Numbered from the stretch's first letter, positions 861 to 59,318 are shown. The stretch: 64,000 nucleotides of DNA from Elainellaceae cyanobacterium (GCA_050331615.1 JBHJGR010000160.1:6482-70481), one strand, 5' to 3'. Notes: a model not told the origin generated them from the sequence alone. Numbers and translations: made by a program.

Positions 861-952
861 TATAGCGTTACGCTTTCGCGTTAGAACGCTCAAGAGGTGT
901 GGAACCCGTGTGTTGAGGGGCTTTCACACTCAAACCTTAGCCCGTAGGGCTG
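861..952 (-). repeat. R1 dispersed multi-hairpin repeat (~93 bp), copy 1
   Basis: Reverse complement of the consensus ATGGCCCTACGGGCTAAGGTTTGAGTGTGGAACCCCCGCG..CGCGGGTTCCACACCTCTTGAATGTCCTAACGCGAAAGCGTAACGCTATA; 10 copies in the window. Confidence 0.85.
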
Positions 953-973
953 TACTTGAAGGAGGGCGATCGC

Positions 974-1783
974 CTAGCGACATTGGCGGGCATTGATTTC
1001 TTGATGGGCCTCTTGTCTCAGGGCTGCCAGCATGGCGGTTGACTTTGGCTCAAACCGCCCCAAAGCAGCGTAACTCAGGAGGCCAAAGTATTCCCGAAGT
1101 GACAGAAAAGCGACCTGTGCTGAGGGCAAATATCGGGGTAGGGAAACTGGATGGGGGATCACCTTTAGGCCAAGACTTTGAAACGTCAGCGTCGCTCGCA
1201 GCATGTGGGGGGCGTCCGTCACCAGCAGAACGCGCTTGGCATCGAGGGAGTGCAGCAGCAGCGAGGTAAACAGCGCCTCTTCATAGGTGGTCATGGCGCA
1301 GTTCACCTCTTGAACCACCTGGTCCAGATCGAGGTCGGGCGACGGTGCAGCCAAATCTTTCATGAGTCGCCGGGTCTCGGTAGCGGCATAGTGGCCGACG
1401 ATGAAAATTGTGGGGGCACGCTCCTGCTGCCAGAGATCGACTGCCTCCTGGTAGCGGGCATCCTCAGGGCGGCGGCTGAGCACCACAATGGCGTCGGCGG
1501 ACTGTCCTGAGTCACGGGGCACAAACCGCATCAGGTTGTTGACCGCCAGGGAAGCCATCAGGGGTGAGGTCACCACCAGGTAAAACGCCAGCAGAGCGAG
1601 GGCCGGTTTGCTGACCCACTGCTTGAGGGCGGGCGATCGCACCAGCCAGGGCACCACGATCACCATAAGCAGAGCCATCACCACGACTGAAGGCGCTGCC
1701 AGCCCATCAAAGATGCTCCAGTTCAGCCTGGTCCAGAGGCGCGTCGGCCAGAAACTCAGACCACATATCATCCATTTGATCAT
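974..1783 (-). CDS. DUF218/YdcF(ElyC)-like envelope-associated protein
   Basis: N-terminal TM segments and a C-terminal DUF218-like domain (IVVLSRRPED..IFIVGHYAA..VLLVTDAPHMLRA). Start set at an internal ATG, because the track ORF begins with a TTG inside repeat R2. Confidence 0.5.
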   Translation of the reverse strand: MIKWMICGLSFWPTRLWTRLNWSIFDGLAAPSVVVMALLMVIVVPWLVRSPALKQWVSKPALALLAFYLVVTSPLMASLAVNNLMRFVPRDSGQSADAIVVLSRRPEDARYQEAVDLWQQERAPTIFIVGHYAATETRRLMKDLAAPSPDLDLDQVVQEVNCAMTTYEEALFTSLLLHSLDAKRVLLVTDAPHMLRATLTFQSLGLKVIPHPVSLPRYLPSAQVAFLSLREYFGLLSYAALGRFEPKSTAMLAALRQEAHQEINARQCR

Positions 1784-1820
1784 ATGAATTGACCTCAAAA
1801 GATACGCTGACAGCAGCAGT

Positions 1821-1905
1821 AAGTGCTTGAGCAATTTCAGTTACATTTTTTTGGGTGCGTCCCTTGCGGGGGGCACATCCCAAGAAAGTAATTCCGTTTA
1901 ATACT
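1821..1905 (+). repeat. R2 hairpin repeat, copy 1 (AGTGCTTGAGCAATT..TACATTTT..GGGTGCG-hairpin-..AGAAAG)
   Basis: Aligns with the copies at 3034, 4498 and 32327. Lies between the divergent DUF218 gene and the UbiA gene. Confidence 0.75.
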
Positions 1906-2083
1906 TATTCCAGCTCAGTTATAGCAACTCCGCCGTTTAGACAAGCAGAATACAGAAAAATTATTCGTTTCTTAGAAATATGCCCGGTCTTACTTTGTAG
2001 AATCATCGCGATTACCCTCTACGCTCCTTTAGATATCGCTGGTATCCTTATGGGGATGGTTTTAAGTTCACTGGGGTGGTAGC

Positions 2084-3031
2084 GTGGCTGTTTCAGCTCA
2101 TCGGAAGTTTTCCCTCGCGTCTCATATCGCTGCGCTTCGTCCCCGTCAATGGACGAAGAACTTAGTCATTTTCGCCGCGCCAATTTTTGCGTTTAGCATC
2201 AATGCTGACTCGATGCTGGGCAGCGCTTTGGCATTCGTTCTATTTTGCTCGCTGTCAAGCAGCTTCTACCTGCTCAACGATGTTGCAGACGTGGAGTCCG
2301 ATCGGCAACATCCGGTCAAGTGCAATCGCCCGATCGCCTCGGGGATGGTCAAAGTGCCGACCGCGGTCGCGATGGCCATTGTGCTGATGGCAGGAGCCCT
2401 GACCATCGGCTGGATGCAGTCGTTTGATCTGGGTCGCGTCCTCTCGGCTTATGCCGTTCTACAAATCGCCTACAACCTGAAGCTTAAGCGGACGCCCATC
2501 CTCGATATCGTGGCGATCGCCACTGGGTTTGTTCTCCGCGCCTCTGCCGGGGCCGCTGCCACCAGCATTTCCCTCTCCCCCTGGTTCCTCCTGTGTACAG
2601 CGATGCTGGCCCTGTTCCTAGGCATCGAAAAGCGCAAGGCTGAGCTGCGGCTGCTCAAAATCAAAGGCGGCAAGACCCGCTCTGTGCTGAAGCGCTATTC
2701 CCTCTCCCTGCTCACCCGCATGGAGAGTACGGTCACCACGGGGGCCGTCATGAGCTATGCCCTTTGGAGTTCAGGCCCGCTAGTCAACGGAGCCACCACC
2801 CCCTGGATGCTGATAACCCTGCCATTTGTGCTGTACGGGATCTTTCGCTACCAGCTCTTGAGCGATCCCGAGGAGCTGGAGCGCCGGACAGAAGACAGCG
2901 AACCCGGTGGTCAAACCGAGCGTCCTGAGGAAGTATTGTTGCGCGATCGCCCAATCTTGCTAACCGTCCTGGGCTGGGTGTTGACGATTCTGGTGATTCT
3001 TTGGCTCCAAAAGCAGGGCATTATCCAGTAG
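2084..3031 (+). CDS. UbiA-family prenyltransferase, decaprenyl-phosphate 5-phosphoribosyltransferase (DPPR synthase, Rv3806c)-like
   Basis: Polytopic membrane protein. The motif NDVADVESDRQHPVKCNRPIASG closely resembles the Rv3806c-type NDxxDxExDRxHPxKxxRPIAxG signature. It is followed by DprE1-like and DprE2-like genes. GTG start. Confidence 0.7.
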   Translation: MAVSAHRKFSLASHIAALRPRQWTKNLVIFAAPIFAFSINADSMLGSALAFVLFCSLSSSFYLLNDVADVESDRQHPVKCNRPIASGMVKVPTAVAMAIVLMAGALTIGWMQSFDLGRVLSAYAVLQIAYNLKLKRTPILDIVAIATGFVLRASAGAAATSISLSPWFLLCTAMLALFLGIEKRKAELRLLKIKGGKTRSVLKRYSLSLLTRMESTVTTGAVMSYALWSSGPLVNGATTPWMLITLPFVLYGIFRYQLLSDPEELERRTEDSEPGGQTERPEEVLLRDRPILLTVLGWVLTILVILWLQKQGIIQ

Positions 3032-3033
3032 AT

Positions 3034-3110
3034 GAGTGCTTGAGCAATTCTAGCTACATTTTCTCAGGGGTGCGCCCCCCAGAAAGCAATTTGGTTTCAC
3101 TACTTCAATC
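3034..3110 (+). repeat. R2 hairpin repeat, copy 2
   Basis: Begins 3 nt after the UbiA stop codon and contains the hairpin GGGGTGCGCCCCCC. Confidence 0.75.
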
Positions 3111-3126
3111 AGAGGGAATCGGTCCT

Positions 3127-4497
3127 ATGTCACTTACCGTAGAACGCCCGATTACAGGTTGGGGAAGGTATCCGGTGGTCAAGAGTGCCCTGCATCGCCC
3201 CGAGAAGGTTGCTGCCCTCCGGCAGCTCTGCCAGCAGGACGCAGGTCATTCGTCCCTGGCTCGGGGAGCTGGGCGCAGCTATGGTGATGCCGCCCTCAAC
3301 GGCAGCGGTCAAACCATCCTCACTGAACGGCTCAACCGCATGCTGGCGTTCGATGCCCAAACCGGGCGGCTGCGCTGCGAGGCGGGCGTTGCCATCAAAG
3401 AGATTCTGGATGTATTCGTCCCCAAAGGCTGGTTTCCCTCGGTGACGCCGGGCACTAAGTTTGTCACCGTGGGTGGGGCGATCGCCTTCGATGTCCACGG
3501 CAAGAACCACCACCAGGACGGCTCCTTCTGCCGCCACGTGCATCGGTTCAATCTAATCCTCGCTTCGGGAGACGTGGTGACCTGCTCCCGCGACGAAAAC
3601 CCTGACCTGTTCTGGGCCACGGTAGGCGGGCTGGGGCTGACGGGCATCATTACCGATGTGGAATTCTCCCTCCAGCCCATCGAAACAGCCTACATCAACG
3701 GGCACAACATCAAGGCCCGCAACCTGGATGAGGCGATCGCCCTATTTGATGAGTATGAGCCTCAGTACCAATATTCTGTTGCCTGGATTGACTGTCTGGC
3801 TGCAGGAGCGTCCCTGGGGCGCAGCATCCTGATGCTGGGTAACCACGCCAAAGTTGAGGATCTGAGCCCAAATCAGCGCCCCTATCCGCTGGCGCTGAAG
3901 CCCAAGCAGCGCTTCCGCGTCACCTTTGACCCGCCCGCTGGCCTGCTGAATCGATATACGATGGGCGCGTTTAACACGCTCTACTACAGCCGCCAGCTTT
4001 CCTGCGAGGTGCGGGCGATCGCCGACTACGATTCCTTCTTCTACCCGCTGGACTTCATTTGGGACTGGAACCGCCTCTACGGCAAGCGGGGGTTTGTGCA
4101 GTATCAGTGCGTTTTTCCCCCAGAGACCAGCCGCACCGGGCTAATCGAGGTGCTAGAACAGTGCAGTCGCAAAGGCTGGGGCTCATTTCTGGCCGTTCTG
4201 AAGCGGTTTGGTCCCCAGGAGGGCCTGCTGTCCTTCCCCATGCCGGGGTTCACCCTAACGCTAGACATGCCCGTGAAGCCGGGGCTGTTCGAGTTCCTAG
4301 ACGGGCTAGACCACCTGGTAATTCGCCGGGGTGGTCGGGTTTATTTGGCAAAGGACGCCCGCCTTGGCCCTGACGCCTTCCGCGCCATGTATCCCAACTA
4401 CGCTGACTGGCTGGCCATCAAGTCGCGCGTCGATCCTGCCAATCAGTTCAAATCCACTCTGTCTGAACGGCTTCAGATTGAGCCAGCTCAGTGCTAA
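3127..4497 (+). CDS. FAD-dependent oxidoreductase, DprE1-like (decaprenylphosphoryl-beta-D-ribose 2'-oxidase family)
   Basis: FAD-binding PCMH-type N-terminus carrying GAGRSYGDAAL (compare the DprE1 motif G-RSYGD), and a C-terminal GGRVYLAKDARL (DprE1-like). Start moved to the ATG at 3127, preceded by GAGGGAA; the track ORF starts at 3001 inside the UbiA gene. Confidence 0.7.
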   Translation: MSLTVERPITGWGRYPVVKSALHRPEKVAALRQLCQQDAGHSSLARGAGRSYGDAALNGSGQTILTERLNRMLAFDAQTGRLRCEAGVAIKEILDVFVPKGWFPSVTPGTKFVTVGGAIAFDVHGKNHHQDGSFCRHVHRFNLILASGDVVTCSRDENPDLFWATVGGLGLTGIITDVEFSLQPIETAYINGHNIKARNLDEAIALFDEYEPQYQYSVAWIDCLAAGASLGRSILMLGNHAKVEDLSPNQRPYPLALKPKQRFRVTFDPPAGLLNRYTMGAFNTLYYSRQLSCEVRAIADYDSFFYPLDFIWDWNRLYGKRGFVQYQCVFPPETSRTGLIEVLEQCSRKGWGSFLAVLKRFGPQEGLLSFPMPGFTLTLDMPVKPGLFEFLDGLDHLVIRRGGRVYLAKDARLGPDAFRAMYPNYADWLAIKSRVDPANQFKSTLSERLQIEPAQC

Positions 4498-4580
4498 TGC
4501 ATTAAGTGCTAACGCATAATTCATCCATCCTATGGGGGTGTGCGCCCCCAAGCAAACAACTTCGGTTACCGACTTAGAGA
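4498..4580 (+). repeat. R2 hairpin repeat, copy 3 (diverged)
   Basis: Starts immediately after the DprE1-like stop codon and contains the hairpin GGGGGTGTGCGCCCCC. Confidence 0.65.
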
Positions 4581-4611
4581 CGTTCACGCAACCTCAAGCT
4601 ACGGGACGCAT

Positions 4612-5355
4612 ATGCGGGGAAAAACAGTTCTGATTATCGGCGCAACGTCTGCCATCGCGCGATCGCTCGCCCACCAGCTGGCGCGACGGGGTGCTGCCCT
4701 TCACCTGGCCGCCCGCGATCGGGTCGAAGTGGAGCGCATCGCCAGCGACATCGCGATTCGCTACGGCGTTCCCACCTCCTGGAGTGCCGTTGAGGCAACC
4801 CGCTACGATAGCCATCCTGATTTCTTTCAACAGGTGCTGGAGCGCACGGGGCGACTGGATGGAGTGGTAGTGTCCTTGGGGGAGCTGGGCGACCAGTCGA
4901 AAGCGCAAATTGATGTGAACCATGCCCAGCGCATCATCCACTCCAACTACACGGGAGTGGTGTCTATTTTGACGCCCATCGCTAACTATCTAGAGCAGCA
5001 GGGGCAGGGCTTTGTCATCGGCATTTCCTCAGTAGCGGGCGATCGCGGTCGGCCCAGCAACTACGTCTACGGTTCGGCGAAGGCCGCCCTGAGTGCGTTT
5101 CTCCAGGGGTTGCGTGGTCGGCTAGCCAAGGCGGGGGTGCACGTCCTCACGGTGAAGCCGGGATTTGTCGATACCAAAATGACCTTCGGCAAGTCCGGGA
5201 TGTTTTTGGTGGCTAGCCCCGATCAGGTCGCCGCCCAAATTCTGCGGGCGCTGGATCGGGGTCAGAACATTGCCTACGCTCCCTGGTTTTGGTTTGCCAT
5301 CATGGCCATTATCCGCGCCGTTCCTGAATTTATCTTTAAGCGACTTAACCTGTAA
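4612..5355 (+). CDS. Short-chain dehydrogenase/reductase, DprE2-like (decaprenylphosphoryl-2-keto-ribose reductase family)
   Basis: Rossmann motif GKTVLIIGATSAIARS, active-site region NYVYGSAKAAL, and about 247 aa, which is like DprE2. Start at ATG 4612. Confidence 0.65.
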   Translation: MRGKTVLIIGATSAIARSLAHQLARRGAALHLAARDRVEVERIASDIAIRYGVPTSWSAVEATRYDSHPDFFQQVLERTGRLDGVVVSLGELGDQSKAQIDVNHAQRIIHSNYTGVVSILTPIANYLEQQGQGFVIGISSVAGDRGRPSNYVYGSAKAALSAFLQGLRGRLAKAGVHVLTVKPGFVDTKMTFGKSGMFLVASPDQVAAQILRALDRGQNIAYAPWFWFAIMAIIRAVPEFIFKRLNL

Positions 5356-8408: not shown

Positions 8409-8459
8409 TACTGTCTTCCTGCTCTTGCAGCGGGTTTTATTGTGATCATACCTAAGGAC

Positions 8460-8549
8460 TAAGTAGAACTGCGTTGAAAAACGAAGGTTAGAAAACTGGG
8501 GGAGCGCCCCGGTTTTCTAACCTGAATTTAATTGTGCCGACCTACTTAT
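8460..8549 (+). repeat. R4 MITE-like element with AAGTAG/CTACTT terminal inverted repeats, copy 1
   Basis: Internal long hairpin GGTTAGAAAAC-GGGGGAGCGCCCC-GGTTTTCTAACC. A reverse-complement copy lies at 11931-12034. Confidence 0.7.
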
Positions 8550-10417: not shown

Positions 10418-10465
10418 GGCGGTTTCAAAAAGCGGTCATCCCCTATCCCGTTAGTAGCGTCTGGT

Positions 10466-11692: not shown

Positions 11693-11930
11693 ATAAACCG
11701 CTCTTCTGCCTGACGGTTCGAGAAAGTCATAGAGTGACCGATAAGTTTGGGGGGGCGATGCATTGGGCCGTTACATCCCGGTTGGGAGCGAAATATGTTG
11801 GCTAGATGCATCTGTTTCTCCTCGGGGAGAAGCGCCAAGTTCCAGGAGCGGCGATAGGAGGCGATCGCCCTCCCGAAACATTTCTCCCACGAGCGAATAC
11901 ACCGTAATGGTTGGCTGCTTGTGTACACTT

Positions 11931-12034
11931 AAGTAGGTCGGCACAATTAAATTCAGGTTAGAAAACCGGGGGAGCGCCCCGCTGAGGCGCTCCCCCGGTT
12001 TTCTAACCTTCGTTTTTCAACGCAGTTCTACTTA
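11931..12034 (-). repeat. R4 MITE-like element, copy 2, sitting where a bidirectional terminator would be
   Basis: Reverse complement of the copy at 8460, with an extended perfect hairpin GGGGGAGCGCCCCGCTGAGGCGCTCCCCC. Lies between the convergent App1 and glmS genes. Confidence 0.7.
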
Positions 12035-16088: not shown

Positions 16089-16330
16089 AGTCAGGTAGGC
16101 GGAGTTTCACGGGGTATCCTGGCAGGTATGGATTATCCGCAGATAGCGCAGATGACGCAGATGAGAGTCATCTTCGTTTCCATATCTGCGTCCATCTGCG
16201 TCATCCAGTCAGGTAGGCGGAGTTTTACCGGGTATCCTGGCAGGTATGGATTATCCGCAGATAGCGCAGATGACGCAGATAAGAGTCATCTTCGTTTCCA
16301 TATCTGCGTCCATCTGCGTCATCTGCGGAT
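16089..16330 (+). repeat. Tandem duplication (2 x ~118 bp) of an R3-family palindromic element
   Basis: The unit AGTCAGGTAGGCGGAGTTT..GGATTATCCGCAGATAGCGCAGATGACGCAGAT..ATCTGCGTCCATCTGCGTCATC occurs twice head-to-tail. The track ORF at 16128-16637 is a translation artefact of this repeat. Confidence 0.8.
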
Positions 16331-20216: not shown

Positions 20217-20349
20217 GGTGCTTGGATTCCCTAACGATCGGAAGCTTTCGACAAGTTCGAAAAATTCGACAAGTTAAATAGATAAGAATAAGATTGTCAC
20301 ATTCTCGCCCGGAACGGCTGTTTGCCTTGGGCAATTTTTACCATTAAGT

Positions 20350-20441
20350 ATGGCCCTACGGGCTAAGGTTTGAGTGTGAAACCCCCGCGTCGCGGGGGCT
20401 TCACACCTCTTAAGCGTCCTAACACGAAAGCGTAGCGCTAT
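20350..20441 (+). repeat. R1 repeat, copy 2
   Basis: ATGGCCCTACGGGCTAAGGTTTGAGTGTGAAACCCCCGCGTCGCGGGGGCTTCACACCTCTTAAGCGTCCTAACACGAAAGCGTAGCGCTAT. Confidence 0.85.
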
Positions 20442-20597
20442 CCATGGACATCAATAAGGTCGGTGGGGGTGCGCCCCCCGCCATAGCGTTGGTTGTTTAT
20501 TTATGGCTACCTGCTTAATTAGGTGAGTTTGCTAGCCTTGAGCAAGAGTAGAGGTTTGTAGGCCATTTCTGAGAAAAGTTCTACCCCCAGTGAAACG

Positions 20598-23606: not shown

Positions 23607-23804
23607 AATAGGTGGCGGAAGAATGCAACTGCCATGCGCTAGCAGAATCACGGTACCGGGCCAGAATGAGGCAGATATGAACCCGACGTTAAGGACGCGG
23701 AAACCCTACGGCAGGGACGCTGATGGCTGCGAACGGTCGATGCGTCACGTCGCAGAGCGTTTCAGACGGTCTCGGTTTCAAGGATGCCGTACAAGTCATG
23801 CTGT

Positions 23805-23898
23805 ATAGCCCTGCGGGCTAAGGTTTGAGTGTGGAACCTCCGCGCCGCGGGGGTTCCACACCTTTTGAATGTCCTAATGTAAAAGCGTAAAGCTATAT
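23805..23898 (+). repeat. R1 repeat, copy 3
   Basis: ATAGCCCTGCGGGCTAAGGTTTGAGTGTGGAACCTCCGCGCCGCGGGGGTTCCACACCTTTTGAATGTCCTAATGTAAAAGCGTAAAGCTATAT. Confidence 0.85.
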
Positions 23899-23910: not shown

Positions 23911-26118
23911 ATGACGACTGACCTCGGGCCATCGACTTGGCCATCGACCTGGATTGAAGGGGCCACCCGGAGTGGCAAGACCCAGCAGCTCATTCAGCAG
24001 TTTTGCGACTGGGTCGGCCCTGCGGCAGACGCTGCCCACCCGCTGCGGGATCACGTGGGGGAGCGCGGCCAGCGGGGCATGCTGGTGTTTGCCGCCAATG
24101 GGGACAACCGCATCGAGCTGGCAGACCGGCTGGTAACAGCCATCGGCGGACGCTATCCCTTTGATTCGACCACGCCCCTGGGCTTTTTTCAGGACGAAGT
24201 ATTGCTGTTTTGGCCACTGGTCGCCCAGCAGCTTGACCTCAGCGTCCAGTTTCCCATCCGTCTGCGTCCCGAAACTGAGCAGGAGCTAGCCACCCGCCTC
24301 TGGCAGGCCGAGCTAGACAGCGGACAACTGCAGCAGGAGGGCGTGCGGGACTACTATATGGTGCGGCGGACGCTTGATTTGTACCAACTGGCGGCCAGTG
24401 CCGGGGTTCCTGTAGAAGAAGTTCCCGCCCGTCTGCACACCGGTTTGACGCCATCCGGCGAAACCAATGCCCTGTGGGACTGCATGGGGGGGCTGGTGCT
24501 GCGGTGGCGTACCTGGTGCCTAGAGCGGGGACTGCTGACCTATGGCATCCTCTCCGAGCTGTACTGGCGTTACTTGCTGCCCCATCCTACCTATCAGCAG
24601 CGGCTGGGCGATCGCTACCAGGCCATTTTCGCCGACGACGGAGACGAATACCCGGCGATCGCCACCCAGCTCTTTCACCAGTGCCTAGATTTGGGGCTCC
24701 CCGGCGTGTTTACCTTCAACCCAGAGGGGGCCATGCGCCTGGGGCTAGGGGCCGACCCGGATGTCTTTGCTTCCCTGCGGGATCGCTGTCCTCAACAGGT
24801 TCTTCTCACCCCTGCCCCCGACAGCAGTCTAGGGGCTGCCTGGGGCGATCAGGTGTGGGAATGGGTCAAAGCGCCGCTGGTGATGCCGGAACTGCCCGCC
24901 TCGGTGCACGCGATTCAAACCATCTCTCGGGCAGAACTGCTGCGGACAACGGCGGCGGTGATCCAGCAGGCGATCGCCTCGGGTCAGGTAGAACCCCAGG
25001 ATGTGGCCATCATCGGGCCAGGGCTGGATGCGATCGCCCGCTATACCCTGCGCAACATTCTGGCGGCTCAGGGAATCCCGGTGGAGTCGGTCAGCGACCA
25101 GCAGCCCATCGTTAGCTCTCCCCTAGTGCGGGCGCTGCTCAGCCTGATGGCGCTGATCTATCCGGGGCTGGGGCGGCTAGTGGAGCGGGAGGCGATCGCC
25201 GAAATGCTGGTGATGCTTAGCCGCCGGACCCAGGCGACGATTCTTTCCCAAGAAGGGGCTGTTTCTCAAGCAGAGGGAGGGGCGATCGCCCCCGAGGAGA
25301 TGCCTATCGATCCCGTCCGGGCTGGACTGATCGTCGATCACTGCTTCATCCCAGACCCCGCTCACCCCGACCTGCGCCCGGTGACCGCCTTTCCCCGCTG
25401 GGATCGGCTGGGCTACGCCACCACCCAAGCCTATGATGACATCCGCCAGTGGATTGAGGCGCAGAAGCTCCAGCAACAGCAGCGTCTGTTGCTCAACCCG
25501 CTGACGCTGCTAGATCGGGCCATTCAAAAATTTTTTCTAGGCAGTGCCGCCCTCCGTGCCGATGAGCTGGCTGTGGTGCGAGAGCTAATGGAAACCGCTC
25601 AGCACTACTGGGAAGTGGATGCACGACTACGCCAGGCCGCCCTCGCTGAGAATGCCGCCGTCCCGAGTGATTCGACCGCTGCCACGGTGGGACGCTTCAT
25701 CCAGCTCCTGCGCAGCGGCACCATTACCGCCGATCCATACCCGGTGCGGCCTCTAGAGGGCAGTCCTCAGGCGGTGACCCTGGCGACGATTTTTCAGTAT
25801 CGCGCTAATCGCCTGGCTCACCCCTGGCAGTTCTGGCTGGATGCTGGCTCGCCCCTCTGGCTCACCGGCGGTGGCTATTTGTTTGGGGCACCGCTGTTTC
25901 TTCAGCGGTGGTCGGGCCAGCCCTGGACTGCCGCCGATACCCTCCAGGCCAATGACGACCGGCTGCGGCGCAACTTAGTAGATTTACTGGGGCGGGTGAC
26001 GGACCAGATCTACTGGTGTCACAGCGATTTGGCCACTACCGGGCAGGAGCAGGCCGGTCCGCTGATTTCTCTGGTGCATGCCGTCCGCCTGGAAGAAAAA
26101 GATTCTTTACGGGCGTGA
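23911..26118 (+). CDS. Conserved hypothetical P-loop protein, divergent UvrD/AddA-like helicase-related
   Basis: Walker A-like GATRSGKT near the N-terminus and a degenerate motif-II-like IFADDGDEY; 735 aa with no other recognisable signature. Confidence 0.35.
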   Translation: MTTDLGPSTWPSTWIEGATRSGKTQQLIQQFCDWVGPAADAAHPLRDHVGERGQRGMLVFAANGDNRIELADRLVTAIGGRYPFDSTTPLGFFQDEVLLFWPLVAQQLDLSVQFPIRLRPETEQELATRLWQAELDSGQLQQEGVRDYYMVRRTLDLYQLAASAGVPVEEVPARLHTGLTPSGETNALWDCMGGLVLRWRTWCLERGLLTYGILSELYWRYLLPHPTYQQRLGDRYQAIFADDGDEYPAIATQLFHQCLDLGLPGVFTFNPEGAMRLGLGADPDVFASLRDRCPQQVLLTPAPDSSLGAAWGDQVWEWVKAPLVMPELPASVHAIQTISRAELLRTTAAVIQQAIASGQVEPQDVAIIGPGLDAIARYTLRNILAAQGIPVESVSDQQPIVSSPLVRALLSLMALIYPGLGRLVEREAIAEMLVMLSRRTQATILSQEGAVSQAEGGAIAPEEMPIDPVRAGLIVDHCFIPDPAHPDLRPVTAFPRWDRLGYATTQAYDDIRQWIEAQKLQQQQRLLLNPLTLLDRAIQKFFLGSAALRADELAVVRELMETAQHYWEVDARLRQAALAENAAVPSDSTAATVGRFIQLLRSGTITADPYPVRPLEGSPQAVTLATIFQYRANRLAHPWQFWLDAGSPLWLTGGGYLFGAPLFLQRWSGQPWTAADTLQANDDRLRRNLVDLLGRVTDQIYWCHSDLATTGQEQAGPLISLVHAVRLEEKDSLRA

Positions 26119-32321: not shown

Positions 32322-32326
32322 TCGGG

Positions 32327-32403
32327 TAAGTGCTTGAGCACAATTAATTACATTTTCTTGGGGGTGCCCCCCAAGAAAATAATTTTTTTAACTACTCAAG
32401 AGG
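32327..32403 (+). repeat. R2 hairpin repeat, copy 4
   Basis: GTAAGTGCTTGAGCACAATTAATTACATTTTCTTGGGGGTGCCCCCCAAGAAAATAAT. Confidence 0.75.
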
Positions 32404-37620: not shown

Positions 37621-37781
37621 AAGACTTCTCAATGTATGGCAGTGGATGCATCGTCCTGGAAAGGGCTTGACGGTACACATTTCACTTAGCCACGCGGGGG
37701 AGAAAAATCCGGAGGGTTATTCTTTAGGCTGCAGTTTTTTCACAGACCCGCCCTTTTCTTGAAGTCAGCTTGATTCGTGGG

Positions 37782-37874
37782 ATGGCCCTACGGGCTAAGA
37801 TTTGAGCACGAAACCCCTATGACGCTCGGGTTTCACACCTCTGAAGTGTCCGTAACGCGAAAGCGTAATGCTAG
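37782..37874 (+). repeat. R1 repeat, copy 4 (diverged)
   Basis: ATGGCCCTACGGGCTAAGATTTGAGCACGAAACCCCTATGACGCTCGGGTTTCACACCTCTGAAGTGTCCGTAACGCGAAAGCGTAATGCTAG. Confidence 0.8.
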
Positions 37875-37962
37875 ATTTGGTACGGGCGCATTATCGATCG
37901 CCTCAAATCAAGCTAGGATGCTAGGTGCCTGTCTAAATCTCCAACGGGGTTTTCGGACAGAT

Positions 37963-38056
37963 ATGGCCCTACGGGCTGAGGTTTGAGTGTGGAACCCCCG
38001 CGACGCGCGGGTTCCACACCTCTTGAATGTTCTAACGCGAAAGCGTAACGCTATAT
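37963..38056 (+). repeat. R1 repeat, copy 5 (near-consensus)
   Basis: ATGGCCCTACGGGCTGAGGTTTGAGTGTGGAACCCCCGCGACGCGCGGGTTCCACACCTCTTGAATGTTCTAACGCGAAAGCGTAACGCTATAT. Confidence 0.85.
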
Positions 38057-38156
38057 CAAGTAAGTAGGTCGCCATAAAAAACAACGCTATGGTGGGGCGC
38101 GCACCCACTGGCTTCGTTGATGTCCATGTACTTACCGAGCTAGGAAAGCGATCGCC

Positions 38157-43264: not shown

Positions 43265-43645
43265 TTATTCATAACGTTCGCCAGATTCGAATTATTCTGA
43301 CGAGATAGCGGTTTCCAGTCGCAAGAGGTATCGATTTGGGAGATGGGGGTACACCTCCCGTACTCCACTCGCGTGAGAAACGCTGTATTTATCCAGATTT
43401 CAAGGACTGTTAGTTATGGCTTCACGCATAGGCGGGGGAGTTTACGGAGAAGCTAGGACAGTTTGCAGATTGGTGAAACCCAGATCTGGCGCTCCGTTTC
43501 CCCCAACCGATGTCCCATCAGGCTCATCTAGTCGGGCGATCGCCCCTACGCTAGTCAGGGGAAGTCGGTGGGAAATGTGCCAACTCTCTGATCGACCGTA
43601 ATCAAAAGATTTACTGAGAGAACTGTCCTAAGGTCATGAAGTATC

Positions 43646-43732
43646 GCGTTATGCTTTTGCGTTGGGACGCTCAACCGGTGTGAAACCCCTGCGATGCGGC
43701 GGTTCCACACTCAAACCTTAGTCCGTAAGACA
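43646..43732 (-). repeat. R1 repeat, copy 6 (diverged)
   Basis: GCGTTATGCTTTTGCGTTGGGACGCTCAACCGGTGTGAAACCCCTGCGATGCGGCGGTTCCACACTCAAACCTTAGTCCGTAAGAC. Confidence 0.75.
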
Positions 43733-43736
43733 TAGG

Positions 43737-52567: not shown

Positions 52568-52663
52568 GTATGGCGTTACGCTTTCGCGTTAGGACGTTCA
52601 AGAGGTGTGGAACCCCCGCGACGCGGGGTTCCACACTCAAACTTTAGCCCGTAGGGCTATAAA
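52568..52663 (-). repeat. R1 repeat, copy 7
   Basis: GTATGGCGTTACGCTTTCGCGTTAGGACGTTCAAGAGGTGTGGAACCCCCGCGACGCGGGGTTCCACACTCAAACTTTAGCCCGTAGGGCTAT. Confidence 0.85.
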
Positions 52664-52703
52664 TGAGAGAATTCAAAAACCTGTTGTGTAGGCCCTACCG
52701 TTC

Positions 52704-53087
52704 ATGACGAGCACCCGAGGCATCATTGATGCCAACCAAGCCTTCTACCGAGCCTTTGAGCGCAAAGATATCGACGCGATGGGGATGATCTGGTCCAAAG
52801 GAGCAGCCAGTCTGTGTGTTCACCCCGGACGCCATGCCTTGCGGGGATGGGAACAGATTCGCGAGTCGTGGGAGACGATCTTCAAGAACACTGAATATCT
52901 GGAAATCGATATCGAACTGGTTACAGTTGAGGTCAACGGCGGGTTGGGCTATGTCGTGCTGGTCGAGCATCTCTTTCAAGTGGTGCGCGGTCGGCGACTG
53001 GAAGCCCAATCTGTGGCGACTAACCTATTTGAGCAGATGAGCGATCGCTGGTACATTGTTCATCACCACGGTAGTCCGGTGGCCTGA
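52704..53087 (+). CDS. NTF2-like (SnoaL/DUF4440) small protein
   Basis: About 127 aa with an alpha+beta cone pattern (IDANQAFYRAFERKDIDAM..W). Confidence 0.45.
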   Translation: MTSTRGIIDANQAFYRAFERKDIDAMGMIWSKGAASLCVHPGRHALRGWEQIRESWETIFKNTEYLEIDIELVTVEVNGGLGYVVLVEHLFQVVRGRRLEAQSVATNLFEQMSDRWYIVHHHGSPVA

Positions 53088-53143
53088 GGCTTGCCCCGTT
53101 GTGGCATTCACGGTAAGACGCTGATAGGCGGATCTGAGAAGCT

Positions 53144-53983
53144 ATGAATCTTATCATCATCGGCTGTGGCTACGTGGGTAGCGCCGTTGCCAGCTATTGG
53201 CGCGATCGCTCAGACCATCGCGTCTGGGCCACGACCACCACGCCAGACCGCCTGCCGGAACTAGAGGCGATCGCCCACCGGGCACTGGTGCTCACCGGTA
53301 CCGATCGGGATGCTCTGCAGCAGGCCCTCCAGGACCAGGAGGGAATAGTCCTCACGCTGGCCCCCACGAGCGATCGGCAGGTGGACGCCGATTGCTATGA
53401 AGCTACCTACCTCCATACCGCCCAAACCTTGGTGGCTGCCCTGGAACAGACACCCAGCGTCAAGCAAATTATCTACACCAGTAGCTGCGCGGTTTATGGC
53501 GATCGCCACGGAGACTGGGTCACGGAAACCGATCCCATTGACCCGTCCGATCGCCACAGTGAGGTGCTGTTCGAAACCGAGCAGGTCTTGCTGTCTGCCG
53601 CCGGCCCAACGCTCCAGGTCTGTATTCTGCGGCTGGGGGCGCTGCACGGTCCCGGTCGCGAACTTGGGCAGCGGTGTCGTAGGGTGGCAGGCACTACTCG
53701 CCCCGGCACGGGAGAGTTTTTCACCAACTGGGTGCATTTAGGGGACGTTGTCGCGGCAATTGACTTGGCGATCGCCCAGCGTCTTCAGGGTATCTATAAC
53801 CTAGTCAACGACGATCCCCTGACGCTGCGAGACTTATTTGATCGAGTCTGCCGCCAGTACAACCTGCCGCCGGTAACTTGGGACCCGTCCCAGGCGAAAT
53901 CCACTCCCGCCAATCGCCGCATCTCCAATCAAAAGCTCAAACAGGCGGGATACTCGCTGATGCATCCGGAGACTGAGCTTTGA
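53144..53983 (+). CDS. NAD(P)-binding Rossmann-fold oxidoreductase/epimerase-like protein
   Basis: N-terminal GCGYVGSAV dinucleotide-binding motif; about 279 aa. Confidence 0.5.
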   Translation: MNLIIIGCGYVGSAVASYWRDRSDHRVWATTTTPDRLPELEAIAHRALVLTGTDRDALQQALQDQEGIVLTLAPTSDRQVDADCYEATYLHTAQTLVAALEQTPSVKQIIYTSSCAVYGDRHGDWVTETDPIDPSDRHSEVLFETEQVLLSAAGPTLQVCILRLGALHGPGRELGQRCRRVAGTTRPGTGEFFTNWVHLGDVVAAIDLAIAQRLQGIYNLVNDDPLTLRDLFDRVCRQYNLPPVTWDPSQAKSTPANRRISNQKLKQAGYSLMHPETEL

Positions 53984-54074
53984 GACAATGGGCGATCGCC
54001 CAATCCGGCTACAGCATATGCGAGTCTCGTTCTATCCTGAGAGAGGAGATCAATCCGGACCCGCCACACCGCTC

Positions 54075-55391
54075 ATGAGCTACTACATCGCGCCCCGCTT
54101 CCTTGACAAACTTGCCGTTCACATCACCAAAAACTATCTCAACCTGCCGGGGGTGCGGGTACCGCTGATTCTAGGCATCCACGGGCGCAAAGGGGAAGGT
54201 AAAACCTTCCAGTGCGAGCTGGCCTTTGAGCGCATGGGTATCGAAGTGGTGCACATGTCGGGGAGCGAGCTGGAGAGTCCCGATGCGGGCGACCCATCCC
54301 GCCTGATTCGCCTGCGCTACCGGGAGGCGGCAGAACTGGTGCGGGTGCGGGGACGGATGGCTGCCCTGATGATTAACGACATCGATGCTGGGGCAGGTCG
54401 ATTTGATGAGGGCACCCAATACACGGTTAATACCCAGCTCGTGAACGGTACGCTAATGAACATCGCGGATAACCCGACGAATGTCCAGCTCCCCGGCAGC
54501 TATGACGATCAGCCCATTCAGCGGGTACCGATTATCGTCACGGGTAATGACCTCTCTACTCTCTACGCTCCTCTAGTGCGAGAGGGGCGCATGGAGAAAT
54601 TTTATTGGGAACCCGATCGCGCCGATCGCATCGGCATTGTTAGCGGCATCTTTGCCCCTGATGGTCTGTCCAATACAGCCGTGACGGAGCTGGTAGACAC
54701 GTTCCCGCAACAGTCCATCGACTTTTACAGCGCCCTCCGTTCCCGCCTATACGACGAGCAGATACGCCACTTCATTCACCAGGTCGGGCTAGAGCGGGTG
54801 TCGGCCCGGGTAGTGAATAGCAAGGAAGCGGCTCCGGTTTTTCTCAAGCCCGATTTTAGTTTGCAGCATTTGCAAGAGATGGGCGATCGCATCGTCCAAG
54901 AGCAGCGCCGCCTGGAAGATACGGGCCTAGTGCGCGAGTACAACCGAGCGCTAAACTACCGGCAGCAACAGGCCGATCGGCAACAGGCCGAGCAGCAAGA
55001 AGTGCCCGCTGGCAATGGCTCGTCAACACCATCTACCGACTCAGCCTCGTTCTATCGGGCTTACTCATCTCCACCGGAGCTGGACTACCTGACCGCCACT
55101 CACGCATCTGCGCCGACCAACGGTGCCCCGCCTTTGGAGGCAGACACCCTCCAGCAGGTGCGTGGAACCTTGGCCCAAGGAGGGCGCATCGGCATTGAGC
55201 ACGCGGACGAGCGCCGATTTCGCGTTAATTCCTGGTCAAGCTGCACGTCAGTAGAGGGCACTGAGGAGGAGGTGTTAGGCCATCTGGCAAGCTGCCTGCA
55301 AGACTATGAAAAAGAATATGTGCGGCTCGTGGGTATCGACCCTGCTGCCAAGCGACGCACATTTGAGGCGATCGTGCAGCGCCCCCAATGA
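54075..55391 (+). CDS. rca: Rubisco activase (cyanobacterial type, AAA+ with C-terminal extension)
   Basis: GIHGRKGEGKTFQCELAFERMGIEVVHMSGSELESPDAGDPSRLIRLRYREAAE aligns with the plant/cyanobacterial Rca Walker A and sensor region. Start at ATG 54075 (MSYYIAPRFL). Confidence 0.8.
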   Translation: MSYYIAPRFLDKLAVHITKNYLNLPGVRVPLILGIHGRKGEGKTFQCELAFERMGIEVVHMSGSELESPDAGDPSRLIRLRYREAAELVRVRGRMAALMINDIDAGAGRFDEGTQYTVNTQLVNGTLMNIADNPTNVQLPGSYDDQPIQRVPIIVTGNDLSTLYAPLVREGRMEKFYWEPDRADRIGIVSGIFAPDGLSNTAVTELVDTFPQQSIDFYSALRSRLYDEQIRHFIHQVGLERVSARVVNSKEAAPVFLKPDFSLQHLQEMGDRIVQEQRRLEDTGLVREYNRALNYRQQQADRQQAEQQEVPAGNGSSTPSTDSASFYRAYSSPPELDYLTATHASAPTNGAPPLEADTLQQVRGTLAQGGRIGIEHADERRFRVNSWSSCTSVEGTEEEVLGHLASCLQDYEKEYVRLVGIDPAAKRRTFEAIVQRPQ

Positions 55392-55461
55392 GCCATTGGC
55401 CGCCCGGTAGAGGACACCTTCGGCAATAGCTTCGTCGTTCTGGGCGATCGCCCCATGCTTG

Positions 55462-55540
55462 CGCGTTAAGACCCTCAAAAAGTTCAAAGCCCCCGCATCG
55501 CGGGGGCTTTGAATTCAAACTTCAGCCCGTAGGGCTATAC
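55462..55540 (-). repeat. R1 repeat, copy 8 (partial/degenerate)
   Basis: CAAAGCCCCCGCATCGCGGGGGCTTTGAATTCAAACTTCAGCCCGTAGGGCTATA. Confidence 0.6.
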
Positions 55541-55544
55541 CGAC

Positions 55545-56138
55545 TTACCAAAGGCCCTGTACTGGCTCCGCGGCTGCGGGAGCGGTGGTAGTGGGCGTAG
55601 TTTGGAACGTTTCCTCGCGCTGCATCATTGTTTCCTCGCGCTGCATCATCGTTTCCTGCGACACCTCAGGCTCGGTGATCATTTCGGCCTCATCTTCTTC
55701 GAAGAGGTCGGGTTCGTCCACGTCTGTAGATGGAGTAGCTGGCGTTGTGGCTTGGGCATCAAAATCAGGGTTGAGCGTAACGACTTCATCTCCCCGGATG
55801 AGAGCAATAGCATCATCATCCTGATAGATCACCGTCACCTCTTCGCCGACATCCAGACCTAGCTCGTTGATGTCGGCGTTGCTCAGATAGATCGTGTCTA
55901 CCGTACCGTCTTCTAGATCGACGCGGACTTCACCAAAGTCAGGGTCAACCGCTATAACCGTAGCGGGAACCCGGACCTGCATGGGGTCGACTTCTTGGGC
56001 AATGTCCTGGGTCGTAATCTGAGATTGTGAGTCAGAGGCTGCAGCGCCGGGTAGGGCGATCGCCCGATGAGCAACGCCAAGGGACGTGATCACGGCCAAG
56101 GCGGAACCCAGCAGAATATGGGGCTTGCGATGTAACAT
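55545..56138 (-). CDS. Secreted acidic protein of unknown function
   Basis: Signal peptide, highly acidic, with a tandem ETMMQRE heptad duplication. Confidence 0.35.
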   Translation of the reverse strand: MLHRKPHILLGSALAVITSLGVAHRAIALPGAAASDSQSQITTQDIAQEVDPMQVRVPATVIAVDPDFGEVRVDLEDGTVDTIYLSNADINELGLDVGEEVTVIYQDDDAIALIRGDEVVTLNPDFDAQATTPATPSTDVDEPDLFEEDEAEMITEPEVSQETMMQREETMMQREETFQTTPTTTAPAAAEPVQGLW

Positions 56139-56267
56139 CTTTGTACTCCTTCCGTAGAATTTTCGGGGTGCCCAAACGCTACATGGCTGGCAGCGACAAA
56201 GCACTACCCGGTATCGAAGATACTAGACGGCGCTAGGGAGAAAATGGGTCCATCAAAGGGTAGAAAG

Positions 56268-56870
56268 CTAAATCGCCTCGCCCAAGCCCAGGGGCGTTTC
56301 CGATAGGGGCGTACCTAGTTTGCTGAGGTTAAGGGCATGGCCTGCCATAACCAGATAAACGGTGGTGGCGATCGCCCCAATCTGTCGCGTCAGAGCCCCT
56401 AGGCGATCGCGAAATAGCCGCCCCGCAGGATAAGCGGGAACGACCCCCCAGCCGGTTTCCTCGGCCACGATGACAATACTACAGGGAGTCTGCTTCAGGC
56501 TGGCAATTAGGGCCTTGGCCGTTTGCTCCCAGTGGTCAGCCTCTTGGTCTAGCTGGGTCGCCAGCCAGGTACCCAGCGAGTCGATGAGCAGACATTGGTG
56601 AGGCAGGGCATTCCCAACGACTGCCGGCAAATCCATTGGCCCTTCCACGGTCAACCAGTGAGCGGGGCGGCGCTGCTGATGCTGGCGAATGCGGGTCGTC
56701 CAGTCAGGATCGTCAGAATTAGTCGCGGCTGTTGCCACATAGACAATTTGCCGGTCTGGCTGGGCATGCTGGGCGATCGCCGCCTCGGCCCACTCGCTTT
56801 TGCCCGATCGGGCTGGACCTGTCACCAGGATCAAAGGATTATTAGAGGAAACCCCAGCAGGGTCTACCAT
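56268..56870 (-). CDS. cobU: Adenosylcobinamide kinase / adenosylcobinamide-phosphate guanylyltransferase
   Basis: P-loop ILVTGPARSGKSEWAE, and about 200 aa when started at ATG 56870. The upstream part of the track ORF is Gly/Pro/Arg-rich non-coding-like sequence. Confidence 0.75.
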   Translation of the reverse strand: MVDPAGVSSNNPLILVTGPARSGKSEWAEAAIAQHAQPDRQIVYVATAATNSDDPDWTTRIRQHQQRRPAHWLTVEGPMDLPAVVGNALPHQCLLIDSLGTWLATQLDQEADHWEQTAKALIASLKQTPCSIVIVAEETGWGVVPAYPAGRLFRDRLGALTRQIGAIATTVYLVMAGHALNLSKLGTPLSETPLGLGEAI

Positions 56871-57181
56871 GACTGGCGCTCGCCATAGGAGCGATCGCTG
56901 TTGGCGGGAAAGGACTGTACGCTGAGGGCCGTCACCAGGTCGCCATTCACGAGAATTTTGATTTGCTGGGCCAGCCGCAGTTCGGCTATGGGGGCCTGCA
57001 GCAGGTTGCCTACCCGGGCGATCGCCTCGGCAGTTTCCAAATCTCGGCAGTGTACTCGGAGGACGCCCCACCAGCGAGTCAGCTTACAGGTCTGAAGCGC
57101 TTTGAGCTGGCTGAGTTCTACGGGATCTTCGCGGTAGAAATCTAGAATGAGTCGCGTGAGTTGAGAGTACCAGTTCATCAT
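56864..57181 (-). CDS. Small hypothetical protein, likely co-transcribed with cobU
   Basis: ORF only. 7-nt overlap with the cobU start. True start is probably the MMNWYS at 57181. Confidence 0.3.
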   Translation of the reverse strand: MMNWYSQLTRLILDFYREDPVELSQLKALQTCKLTRWWGVLRVHCRDLETAEAIARVGNLLQAPIAELRLAQQIKILVNGDLVTALSVQSFPANSDRSYGERQSW

Positions 57182-57704
57182 GATCTTTAACTTGAGTGCC
57201 TGGGGACCTTCCGGGGATGAGCAAATGCAAAAAAATTGCAAAGAAAATGCAAAAAGCCTAAACGCCAATGCCGAGGTGCATGCTTAATAAGCAGCGCATC
57301 ACTCAAATTTGCATCTCAATTTGCGTCTATATAATTGATGCCATTTGCTTTAGCTGATACTTTACATTGAACATCAGGTTTTCTCTGGTTGTAGCATGGC
57401 TGAAAAAAGATTTAATAACTGGTTGGATTTAGTAAGATCCCTTTTGAAGTTACTCAATCCTTCTCTAGGTAAGGATTTAAGCGGATTGCCATGCCTCCGG
57501 TGGTGTAACAATTTTGTGGAAGTTGTTGATATAAGTTAATCAAACGATCGAATTTCTCCCATTTAATTGAAGGGCATACTTTAATCATTTGTTTAGGTTT
57601 GCCAAAAGGGAATTCAAGGATTTAGTTGAGCCCAACCGACGATCAATGAGATCGCTAGCGCCAGCATGACCAATCATTTCATTTACACTGTGGATATGGC
57701 GCTA

Positions 57705-57788
57705 TGCTTTCGCGTTAGGACATTCAAGAGGTGTGGATCCTCCGCGTCGCGGGGGGTCCACACGCAAACCTTAGCCCGTAGGGCTATA
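57705..57788 (-). repeat. R1 repeat, copy 9
   Basis: ATATGGCGCTATGCTTTCGCGTTAGGACATTCAAGAGGTGTGGATCCTCCGCGTCGCGGGGGGTCCACACGCAAACCTTAGCCCGTAGGGCTATA. Confidence 0.85.
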
Positions 57789-57819
57789 GAATTGGAGCCG
57801 TTTTGATAGGTCAGCTCAC

Positions 57820-59244
57820 ATGCGATCGCCCCAGTCCTCTCCTCTCCAGTCCCCGCCCACCCAATTGCTGCCTACCCTGGCAGAAATCCTGCGGCAGCGC
57901 CGCCTTCAGTTAGCCCAGCGCTTCGATCATCCCGTGGTGCTGTGGTCGGGGCAGCCCCAGTCGCGCAACTTTCCGGCCAACGTCTATCCGTTTCGCCCCA
58001 GCAGTCATTTTCTCTACTTTGCTGGGCTGCCGCTGAGCAACGCCGCCATTCGTCTGAGCCAGGGTCGCCTAGAGCTATATAAAGACAACCTGTCCGCAGC
58101 TAGCGCTCTCTGGCACGGAGCCGCACCCGCGCGGGAGGAGCTAGCGGTGCAGATGGGAGCCGATGCTGCCTATCCCTTAGCTGAGCTAGGGCAGCGGCTG
58201 GATGGGGACGCCACCCTTCCGGTTCAAGATCGCGCCACTCAAAATCAACAGTCTCGCTTGCTGGGGCGATCGCTGGCTGATGCCCCCCAGGGAATGGATC
58301 AGGAGCTGGCTCGGGCCATTGTGGCTCTGCGCCTGGTTCACGATCAGGAGGCGATCGCCCAAATTCGCACCGCCGCAGCGGTAACGGTGCAGGCTCACCG
58401 AGCAGGAATGGCTGCCACGCCTCAAGCCACCCATGAGGCAGCGGTGCGGGCGGCAATGGAACAGGTGCTCATGGCCCATGGAATGACCGTTGCCTATAAC
58501 AGCATCGTCACCGTCCACGGAGAGGTGCTGCACAACGAGCAGTATCACCACCCGCTCCACCCCGGCGATCTGCTGCTGGCGGACGTGGGGGCGGAAGCGC
58601 CATCCGGCTGGGCCTCAGACGTAACCCGCACCTGGCCAGTCTCCGGCAGGTTCTCTCCCACCCAGCGGGATATTTACGACATCGTGCTGGCAGCCCACGA
58701 TGCCTGCATCGAGTCCATGAAGCCAGGGGTGGAATATCGGGACGCGCATCTGCTGGCAGCACGGGTAATTGCGGACGGACTGGTACAGTTGGGTATCTTG
58801 CAGGGACGGGCCGACGATCTAGTAGAGATGGACGCCCACGCCCTGTTTTTCCCCCACGGCATCGGTCACCTGCTGGGCCTAGATGTCCACGATATGGAGG
58901 ATTTGGGGGATTTAGCCGGATACGCCGAGGGTCGGCAGCGGAGCGATCGCTTCGGTCTGGGCTACCTGCGCCTCGATCGCCCCCTTCAAGCGGGCATGAT
59001 GACCACCATCGAGCCAGGGTTCTACCAGGTTCCCGCTATTTTGAATGATCCAGAACGGCGATCGCGCTACCAGTCTGTGGTCAACTGGGAGCGACTGGCC
59101 CAGTTTGCAGACGTGCGGGGCATCCGCATTGAGGACGACGTACTGGTGACGGAAGCGGGTACTGAGATCATCACCGCCGCCCTGCCCACCCAGGCCGCAG
59201 CGATTGAATCAATCGTCCAGGGTACCTATAGCCCTACGGGCTAA
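57820..59244 (+). CDS. Xaa-Pro aminopeptidase (M24B, aminopeptidase P-like)
   Basis: Pita-bread metal ligands HGIGHLLGLDVHD..E..E, with a creatinase-like N-terminal domain. The last five codons (YSPTG) and the TAA stop lie inside an R1 repeat. Confidence 0.7.
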   Translation: MRSPQSSPLQSPPTQLLPTLAEILRQRRLQLAQRFDHPVVLWSGQPQSRNFPANVYPFRPSSHFLYFAGLPLSNAAIRLSQGRLELYKDNLSAASALWHGAAPAREELAVQMGADAAYPLAELGQRLDGDATLPVQDRATQNQQSRLLGRSLADAPQGMDQELARAIVALRLVHDQEAIAQIRTAAAVTVQAHRAGMAATPQATHEAAVRAAMEQVLMAHGMTVAYNSIVTVHGEVLHNEQYHHPLHPGDLLLADVGAEAPSGWASDVTRTWPVSGRFSPTQRDIYDIVLAAHDACIESMKPGVEYRDAHLLAARVIADGLVQLGILQGRADDLVEMDAHALFFPHGIGHLLGLDVHDMEDLGDLAGYAEGRQRSDRFGLGYLRLDRPLQAGMMTTIEPGFYQVPAILNDPERRSRYQSVVNWERLAQFADVRGIRIEDDVLVTEAGTEIITAALPTQAAAIESIVQGTYSPTG

Positions 59245-59318
59245 GGTTTGAGTGTGGAACCCCCGCGACGCGCGGGTTCCACACCTCTTGAATGTCCTAA
59301 CGCGAAAGCGTAACGCCG
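59228..59318 (+). repeat. R1 repeat, copy 10 (near-consensus), overlapping the 3' end of the aminopeptidase gene
   Basis: ATAGCCCTACGGGCTAAGGTTTGAGTGTGGAACCCCCGCGACGCGCGGGTTCCACACCTCTTGAATGTCCTAACGCGAAAGCGTAACGCC. Confidence 0.85.

Follow-up and report, generated by a model that had tools for sequence, protein, structure and literature searches.

The window analysed here, a stretch of 64,000 nucleotides from the genome of an Elainellaceae cyanobacterium (GCA_050331615.1, JBHJGR010000160.1:6482-70481), carries a dispersed repeat, R1, among genes of ordinary function (citrate synthase, CemA, NurA, arginine decarboxylase, RuBisCO activase, aminopeptidase P and others). R1 consists of a 90-bp body with the dinucleotide TA on either side. 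It is non-coding, contains no open reading frame (ORF), and belongs with the repeats of less than 300 bp present in many dispersed copies. By repeat search, sequence patterns and nhmmer, the window holds exactly 10 copies, five per strand (Table 1), at a density of one per 6.4 kb; the repeat search returned them as two five-copy sets that are reverse complements of one another. A 22-nt core pattern (up to 3 mismatches) has 10 matches in the window against 0 expected by chance, and a 19-nt right-end pattern has 8 against 0.01 expected. A profile hidden Markov model (HMM), run at very permissive settings, revealed no remnants in the window beyond these 10 copies. An initial annotation of the window had already listed 10 copies in both orientations, with coordinates that agree with ours to a few bases (ours include the flanking TA), and had called all of them intergenic but the last. 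Nine are indeed intergenic, and the tenth (59227-59320) overlaps the gene at 57820-59244, whose last five codons and stop it provides. Two details of that annotation are to be corrected: the copy near 55462, described as partial, is full length and strongly diverged, and copies in the window are 63-94% identical in pairwise comparison (mean 80%) instead of 80-97%.

The R1 consensus reads TA-TAGCCCTACGGGCTAAGGTTTGAGTGTGGAACCCCCGCGACGCGGGGGTTCCACACCTCTTGAATGTCCTAACGCGAAAGCGTAACGC(C/T)A-TA, with a body that starts with TAGC and ends with GC(T/C)A. As read from this consensus, the outermost 10 nt of the two ends make up an imperfect inverted repeat (TAGCCCTACG / CGTAACGCTA): TAGCCCTACG matches the reverse complement TAGCGTTACG at 8 of 10 positions, and the match falls to 10 of 18 when the repeat is lengthened. 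The three hairpins attributed earlier to each copy are present. The left end folds as AGCCC-TAC-GGGCT; the centre is a perfect palindrome of 15-16 bp (GTGTGGAACCCCCGCG/CGCGGGGGTTCCACAC), followed by a tail, CCTCTTGA, that is not U-rich; and the right end folds as ACGC-GAAA-GCGT, a highly conserved GAAA tetraloop hairpin overlapping an alternative GCG-TAA-CGC. The predicted RNA folds of the two strands are equal in stability (-47.2 and -47.8 kcal/mol). The whole of R1 reads as a degenerate fold-back, the inner 16 bp of which still make a perfect palindrome.

Outside the window, R1 was surveyed in species-representative genomes, where the counts rest on the matches listed. Among these matches, at least 63 stretches belong to a metagenome-assembled genome, 'Synechococcales cyanobacterium 1108005' (JAYKGU01), and eight listed genome matches in other phyla received no support from the HMM. 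JAYKGU01 is a relative of the window's genome: the two share 75-90% DNA identity in their syntenic genes, and their intergenic spacers can scarcely be aligned. Proteins encoded in the window also occur in one JGI metagenome and in one SRA run. Identity to the consensus averages 94.7% in the R1 copies of the related genome and lies at 94-98% in the youngest copies of the window. Between the genomes, the best-matching pair reaches 98.9%, and copies of both genomes are polymorphic at identical positions. Such near-identity of R1, despite host intergenic DNA that cannot be aligned, implies a source sequence that is conserved over its full length or has recently moved horizontally. The R1 consensus had no blastn match among the plasmids of PLSDB, and the viral contigs returned only one partial match (34 model positions, 5-38; nhmmer E = 7e-4). 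A search of metagenome contigs (JGI collection) with a two-end R1 pattern returned 14 loci, none of which was confirmed by the HMM; this collection evidently lacks the source population. Thus, among the matches listed, R1 is known from one Elainellaceae genome and one related 'Synechococcales' genome, and it is without sequence similarity to any catalogued element in the collections searched.

The window and the related genome together provide 74 full copies, the related-genome count (at least 64) being a lower bound. TA is found at the 5' flank of 69 of them, at the 3' flank of 66 and on both sides of 63. Conservation ends right outside the TA, beyond which the flanks are random, apart from a weak preference for G/C at position -1 of the target. 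The most direct view of the insertion event comes from 11 R1 copies nested in R2, a second MITE-like family (MITE, miniature inverted-repeat transposable element) with termini TAAGTAG...CTACTTA and a central GC-rich palindrome, of which the retrieved DNA contains 34 regions. Deleting R1 together with one TA rebuilds an uninterrupted R2, so that the pre-insertion sequence is given directly. These insertions use three different TA sites, TAAG-TA-GAAC (the same site at both R2 termini) and GGT-TA-GAAAAC, with R1 in either orientation, and one and the same R2 site carries R1 in both orientations. At least 10 of the 64 full related-genome copies lie inside R2, a frequency of nesting that makes R2 a preferred target.

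Comparison of orthologous sites between the window and JAYKGU01 gives the same picture of mobility. All seven sites are filled in one genome and empty in the other: the five window sites examined are empty in the relative (copies 37781 and 37962 are absent at L040; copies 55446, 57695 and 59227 at L089), and two of two related-genome copies (L040:2016 and L042:6051) are absent from the window. The junctions of these empty sites are not base-precise, as the spacers have diverged, and the nested insertions in R2 were used for that purpose instead. Coding sequence makes up about 81% of the DNA, yet 58 of the 61 copies that could be assessed fall in intergenic regions, between tandem (28), divergent (16) or convergent (14) genes. 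Nine of the tandem cases run with the genes and 19 against them, with no significant orientation bias.

A shorter form of R1, 54 nt with its flanks (50 bp without), lacks the 40-nt central palindrome. It occurs at L011:1708-1761, L027:4882-4934 and L050:2364-2417, with which L006:1175-1205 was grouped, and its gap is bounded exactly by an 8-nt direct repeat, TTGAGTGT, present in two copies. One short form sits inside R2 and is flanked by TA. The short forms may be recurrent deletions of the palindrome or a mobile 50-bp subfamily. The converse idea, that the central palindrome is an independent mobile module, was dropped, as no solo copies turned up.

The hairpins were then compared across 72 copies, in which 95.3% of the cells at paired positions are standard pairs. 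At least one double (compensated) change affects 10 of the 15 pairs of the central helix. There are 15 double-changed cells in the central stem, against 3.7 ± 1.8 after shuffling, and none of 500 shuffles reaches 15; controls with slid partners give 8-13. Compensated change in the central stem is therefore in modest excess, five of the compensated changes falling in the single copy 55446-55539. The central helix also contains 88 cells with uncompensated mismatches: 23 would be G.U when read from one strand and 35 when read from the other, and 30 fit neither case. This symmetry between strands points to decaying double-stranded DNA, not to selection on an RNA read from one strand. The signs of covariation cut both ways: double changes exceed the shuffled level, but uncompensated changes are in the majority and lack a strand bias. 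The compensatory-looking changes cited in the initial annotation for copy 2 are divided likewise, A-T at pair 32/55 being compensated and A.C at 34/53 not. Most R1 copies are simply decaying. Their identity to the consensus extends from 98% down to 72%, and the stems of older copies have weakened (-10.6 kcal/mol in copy 37781, -11.8 in copy 861 and -18.7 in copy 43642, compared with about -26 in young copies). The conservation of hairpin 1 in related-genome copies is uninformative, given that the pattern used for their retrieval lay within hairpin 1. We conclude that the hairpins belong to a conserved source ('master') sequence, and that real constraint acts on the hairpin in this source and in one copy that was probably exapted.

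Taken together, R1 is very probably a non-autonomous DNA transposon, a MITE of 90 bp that inserts at TA with duplication of this dinucleotide. It is no new RNA gene but adds an uncatalogued family to a well-known class of elements. The initial annotation had favoured a small structured RNA or a protein-binding site rather than selfish DNA; that preference fails for the family as a whole, in which the hallmarks of transposition are seen. It had also named recognition as a known MITE or REP family as the outcome that would overturn its proposal: by its features R1 is a MITE, and the family itself is absent from the catalogues. In the mechanism that we propose, a transposase whose gene lies elsewhere would bind to the ends of R1 (5'-TAGCCCTACG ... 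CGTAACGC(T/C)A-3', a short imperfect inverted repeat, each end being a small palindrome) and would move the element in trans into a TA, which would be duplicated. The IS630/Tc1-mariner superfamily is recognised by its strict 2-bp TA duplication, and for this reason, and this reason only, a DDE enzyme of that type would be the likeliest mobiliser. R1 would have been active independently in the two related cyanobacterial lineages; copies would survive almost only between genes and then decay neutrally, and single copies would occasionally affect the host, as proposed below for the terminator of copy 8 and the C-terminus encoded by copy 10.

Several observations weigh against this interpretation. 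A TA on both sides may also arise without duplication, when an element that itself ends in TA inserts 3' of a TA. No autonomous partner came to light, neither a lone R1 end nor a multi-copy segment longer than 500 bp being present in the 691 kb retrieved; the same 691 kb contain no SPxLNPIE-type IS630 signature, and no transposase domain was found in the 19 window ORFs checked. The inverted repeats of R1 are short (8/10) compared with the 20-30 bp usual for IS630-type elements. Subgroups of the IS5 family make AT-rich duplications of 2-4 bp, and such a subgroup is a possible mobiliser. Finally, the excess of compensated change indicates some constraint on the stem, or hairpin-templated correction of it, beyond plain decay. 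One neighbouring gene was considered as a mobiliser and rejected: the ORF beside copy 3 (23911-26118, + strand, 735 aa), which bears the NCBI name 'recombinase family protein'. It exhibits a Walker A motif (GATRSGKT) but matches nothing in Pfam or NCBIfam even at E ≤ 1, and there is no ground for linking it to R1.

The excess of compensated stem change, together with the 98.9% identity of the best cross-genome pair, leaves some room for a role of the fold itself. R1 may spread through folded DNA or RNA, by way of a hairpin-recognising enzyme other than IS630 or of an element RNA, or it may be a hairpin module that the host repeatedly recruits for terminators or RNA-stability elements. We hold this to be unlikely, with a small but real chance of being right. 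If the module were host-recruited, copy 8 would be its first documented case.

Somewhat less credible is a movement of R1 as single-stranded DNA by an HUH/Y1 enzyme, of the IS200/IS605 type ('PATE') or the REP/RAYT type, with insertion 3' of TA and no duplication. Each end does exhibit a small G+C-rich hairpin, AGCCC-TAC-GGGCT and GCG-TAA-CGC, of similar shape and on the same strand; the terminal inverted repeat is weak; and the two-sided TA formally fits a TA target joined to an element ending in TA. However, only 2 nt of the R1 target are conserved, where known HUH elements have targets of 4-5 nt. IS608-type ends carry a guide tetranucleotide 5' of the hairpin foot, for which the left hairpin of R1, 0-1 nt from the junction, leaves no room. 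The ends of R1 are moreover symmetric (TATAGC...GCTATA), either orientation occurs at one R2 target site, and the GA...GA flanks of copy 37781 are what duplication of an off-target site is expected to produce. Single-stranded DNA transposons are also known for a strong strand bias, but the window, in which R1 is oriented 5:5, has a cumulative GC skew with an almost monotonic rise, which suggests a single replichore.

Even less can be said for the view that R1 is first of all a cis-acting RNA module or a set of small structured RNAs, with its three hairpins under selection at the RNA level. The stable predicted fold (-47 kcal/mol for the consensus) with 95% standard pair cells, the double changes above the shuffled level (15 versus 3.7), the well conserved GAAA tetraloop hairpin and the perfect stem of copy 8, reached by five compensated changes, are all in its favour. 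Yet both strands fold equally well, the mismatches are strand-symmetric (23 versus 35 G.U-compatible) with 88 cells uncompensated, and the slid-partner controls yield 8-13 double-changed cells as well. The copies lie in mixed orientation to genes, in promoter, 5'-leader, 3' and convergent settings, and the TA duplication and the presence/absence between genomes show that copy number stems from transposition. Rfam, suggested as a check in the initial annotation, has no family matching anywhere in the window at gathering thresholds, and a permissive scan around two copies gave a best E-value of about 1, that is, noise. The least probable alternative of all is a host-selected protein-binding or chromosome-organising site, comparable to the BIME/REP sites for gyrase or IHF: the palindromic modules, their density (1 per 6.4 kb) and a 90-bp unit far better conserved between genomes than the surrounding intergenic DNA would suit it, but none of seven sites is common to both genomes, old copies decay freely and many copies are nested in another repeat, a pattern that suits a parasite whose source copy is conserved better than it suits sites maintained by the host.

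R1 appears to have altered its surroundings in two places of the window. Copy 8 (55446-55539) starts 6 nt past the TAA stop (55547-55545) of the minus-strand gene 55545-56138, and its central hairpin (-26.4 kcal/mol) has a perfect 14-bp stem owing to five compensated pair changes (GTGTGGAAC/GTTCCACAC replaced by ATTCAAAGC/GCTTTGAAC). The tail has changed from CCTCTTGA to CTTTTTGA, with the gain of a T-run, and the right end of the copy is overwritten by GCGATCGC, the cyanobacterial HIP1 octamer, which is frequent across the window. The variant stem is found in no other of the 74 copies, and its pattern has no match in the metagenome contigs, a collection that also lacks the source contig. Judging from these sequence features, copy 8 was probably exapted and kept as a predicted Rho-independent terminator; hairpin-templated (quasipalindrome) correction of the stem without selection is a possible alternative. 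No promoter-like site was found inside R1 in the region 55000-59800, which includes three copies, only one of them terminator-like.

The second case is copy 10, the first 18 nt of which (59227-59244) encode the last five residues and the stop (YSPTG*) of aminopeptidase P (57820-59244). On a direct reading, the gene would have ended QGT-TAG before the insertion, the target TA lying within the stop codon. The aminopeptidase P of the related genome, which has no R1 at this place, ends in QGGHSPT*. This resembles the QGT-YSPTG* of the window, with different codons (59212-59244 versus L089), and the resemblance may be a coincidence or the trace of an older event. Copies 57695 and 59227 form an inverted pair, 92% complementary, that brackets the aminopeptidase P gene.

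R1 is comparable to RUP, Nezha, ERIC and Correia in being a small structured MITE flanked by TA, with copies that occasionally affect their neighbours; Correia elements, too, have TA on both sides. RUP (Repeat Unit of Pneumococcus) is an IS630-Spn1-related, non-coding MITE of about 100 bp in Streptococcus pneumoniae, with terminal inverted repeats, a target-site duplication, a stable hairpin and about 100 or more copies, and it tends to insert in or near other mobile elements (PMC3049150), a preference paralleled by the nesting of R1 in R2. RUP is AT-rich, however, and its inverted repeats match those of the resident IS630-Spn1, whereas R1 is GC-rich, with an imperfect repeat of about 10 bp, three separate hairpins and no insertion sequence found as its partner. 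Nezha, MaeMITE and the Anabaena MITEs exhibit inverted repeats, direct repeats and a stable predicted structure, and their mobility was deduced from filled and empty orthologous sites in related genomes (PMC3184786). R1 shares with them the host phylum and this line of evidence; Nezha is larger (130-170 bp, against 90 bp for R1 and 50 bp for its short form) and has its inverted repeats in common with ISNpu3. ERIC-type elements have 5'-TA-3' on both sides, and individual copies of ERIC and of Correia (CREE/NEMIS) influence the genes beside them by way of promoters, RNA hairpins or termination (PMC3184786). Both differ from R1 in their long inverted repeats, the whole element making one hairpin, and Correia in addition carries IHF sites and promoters. 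The pneumococcal SPRITE is a dispersed repeat with a long stem and then a U-rich tract, resembling a Rho-independent terminator (PMC3049150). Copy 8 has this form, but in SPRITE the terminator is the family consensus and in R1 the derived state of a single copy. The palindromic elements of the REP/REPIN-RAYT and IS200/IS605 groups are like R1 short, G+C-rich, extragenic and high in copy number, with hairpins at the ends; they make no duplication, use targets of 4-5 nt or GTAG/CGTC tags and are strand-biased, in contrast to the symmetric TA flanks, the clean target restoration and the lack of strand bias in R1. Compared with most such MITEs, R1 is shorter, GC-rich, unusually short in its inverted repeats and distinct in its three-hairpin layout.

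Other features of the window were recorded in passing. Two inverted copies of R2 bracket 3.4 kb with fasciclin, M48 peptidase and APP1-like genes. Between the minus-strand CobU operon and the plus-strand aminopeptidase P gene, an AT-rich non-coding region of about 340 nt (57256-57590) is strikingly conserved with L089:2520-2860 (reverse strand), with identical blocks of up to 35 nt, where other spacers cannot be aligned. It contains hairpin-like segments whose stems persist while their loops vary, and positions 57308-57335 carry a promoter-like TTTGCA-16-TATAAT; Rfam gave no match for the region at E ≤ 1. We regard it as a candidate for an unannotated non-coding RNA or leader. A 117-nt unit is present in two tandem copies, 97% identical, at 16089-16323, and a 45-nt motif (GTAAGTGCTTGAGCAATTTCAGTTACATTTT..) recurs at 1819-1863, 3032-3076 and 32326-32370 with 73-80% identity, each time near an ORF boundary.

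Table 1. Copies of R1, their parts and the R2 elements in the window (positions counted from its first nucleotide)
Feature	Position	Strand	Remarks
R1 copy 1	861-954	-	Between convergent genes, just past a separate terminator-like hairpin (~820-852); inner central stem decayed
R1 copy 2	20349-20442	+	Between two minus-strand genes (citrate synthase, histidine phosphatase)
R1 copy 3	23804-23897	+	Divergent genes on either side; ORF 23911-26118 starts 14 nt downstream
R1 copy 4	37781-37875	+	Old, decayed; 6 stem pairs broken; flanks GA...GA, not TA...TA
R1 copy 5	37962-38055	+	Reference for anatomy; R2-like element starts 5 nt downstream
Copy 5, left TA	37962-37963	+	
Copy 5, left inverted repeat	37964-37973	+	
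Copy 5, hairpin 1	37964-37978	+	
Copy 5, central palindrome	37987-38019	+	
Copy 5, GAAA hairpin	38035-38046	+	
Copy 5, right inverted repeat	38044-38053	+	
Copy 5, right TA	38054-38055	+	
R1 copy 6	43642-43735	-	Diverged; divergent intergenic region
R1 copy 7	52569-52661	-	43 nt upstream of SnoaL-like gene 52704-53087
R1 copy 8	55446-55539	-	Most diverged, 72% to consensus; perfect 14-bp central stem
Intrinsic-terminator-like site in copy 8	55473-55513	-	14-bp stem (9 G-C), 3-nt loop, tail CTTTTTGAGG; terminator scan
R1 copy 9	57695-57788	-	32 nt upstream of the aminopeptidase P start codon
R1 copy 10	59227-59320	+	Youngest-looking; 98.9% identical to one related-genome copy
R2	8460-8548		
R2	11930-12034		
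R2-like	38061-38134		

For the scanning of genomes the case of R1 calls for caution: a dispersed repeat with several hairpins and compensatory-looking changes is more probably a transposon whose source copy is conserved than a novel RNA gene, and an analysis of flanks and targets settles the question between transposon and RNA fast. R1 and R2 provide uncatalogued MITE families for a poorly known, uncultured lineage of cyanobacteria, and both have been active since the split of the two related lineages. Such elements fragment metagenome assemblies, yield strain-level markers and alter genes, here by one new C-terminus with its stop codon and one probable terminator.

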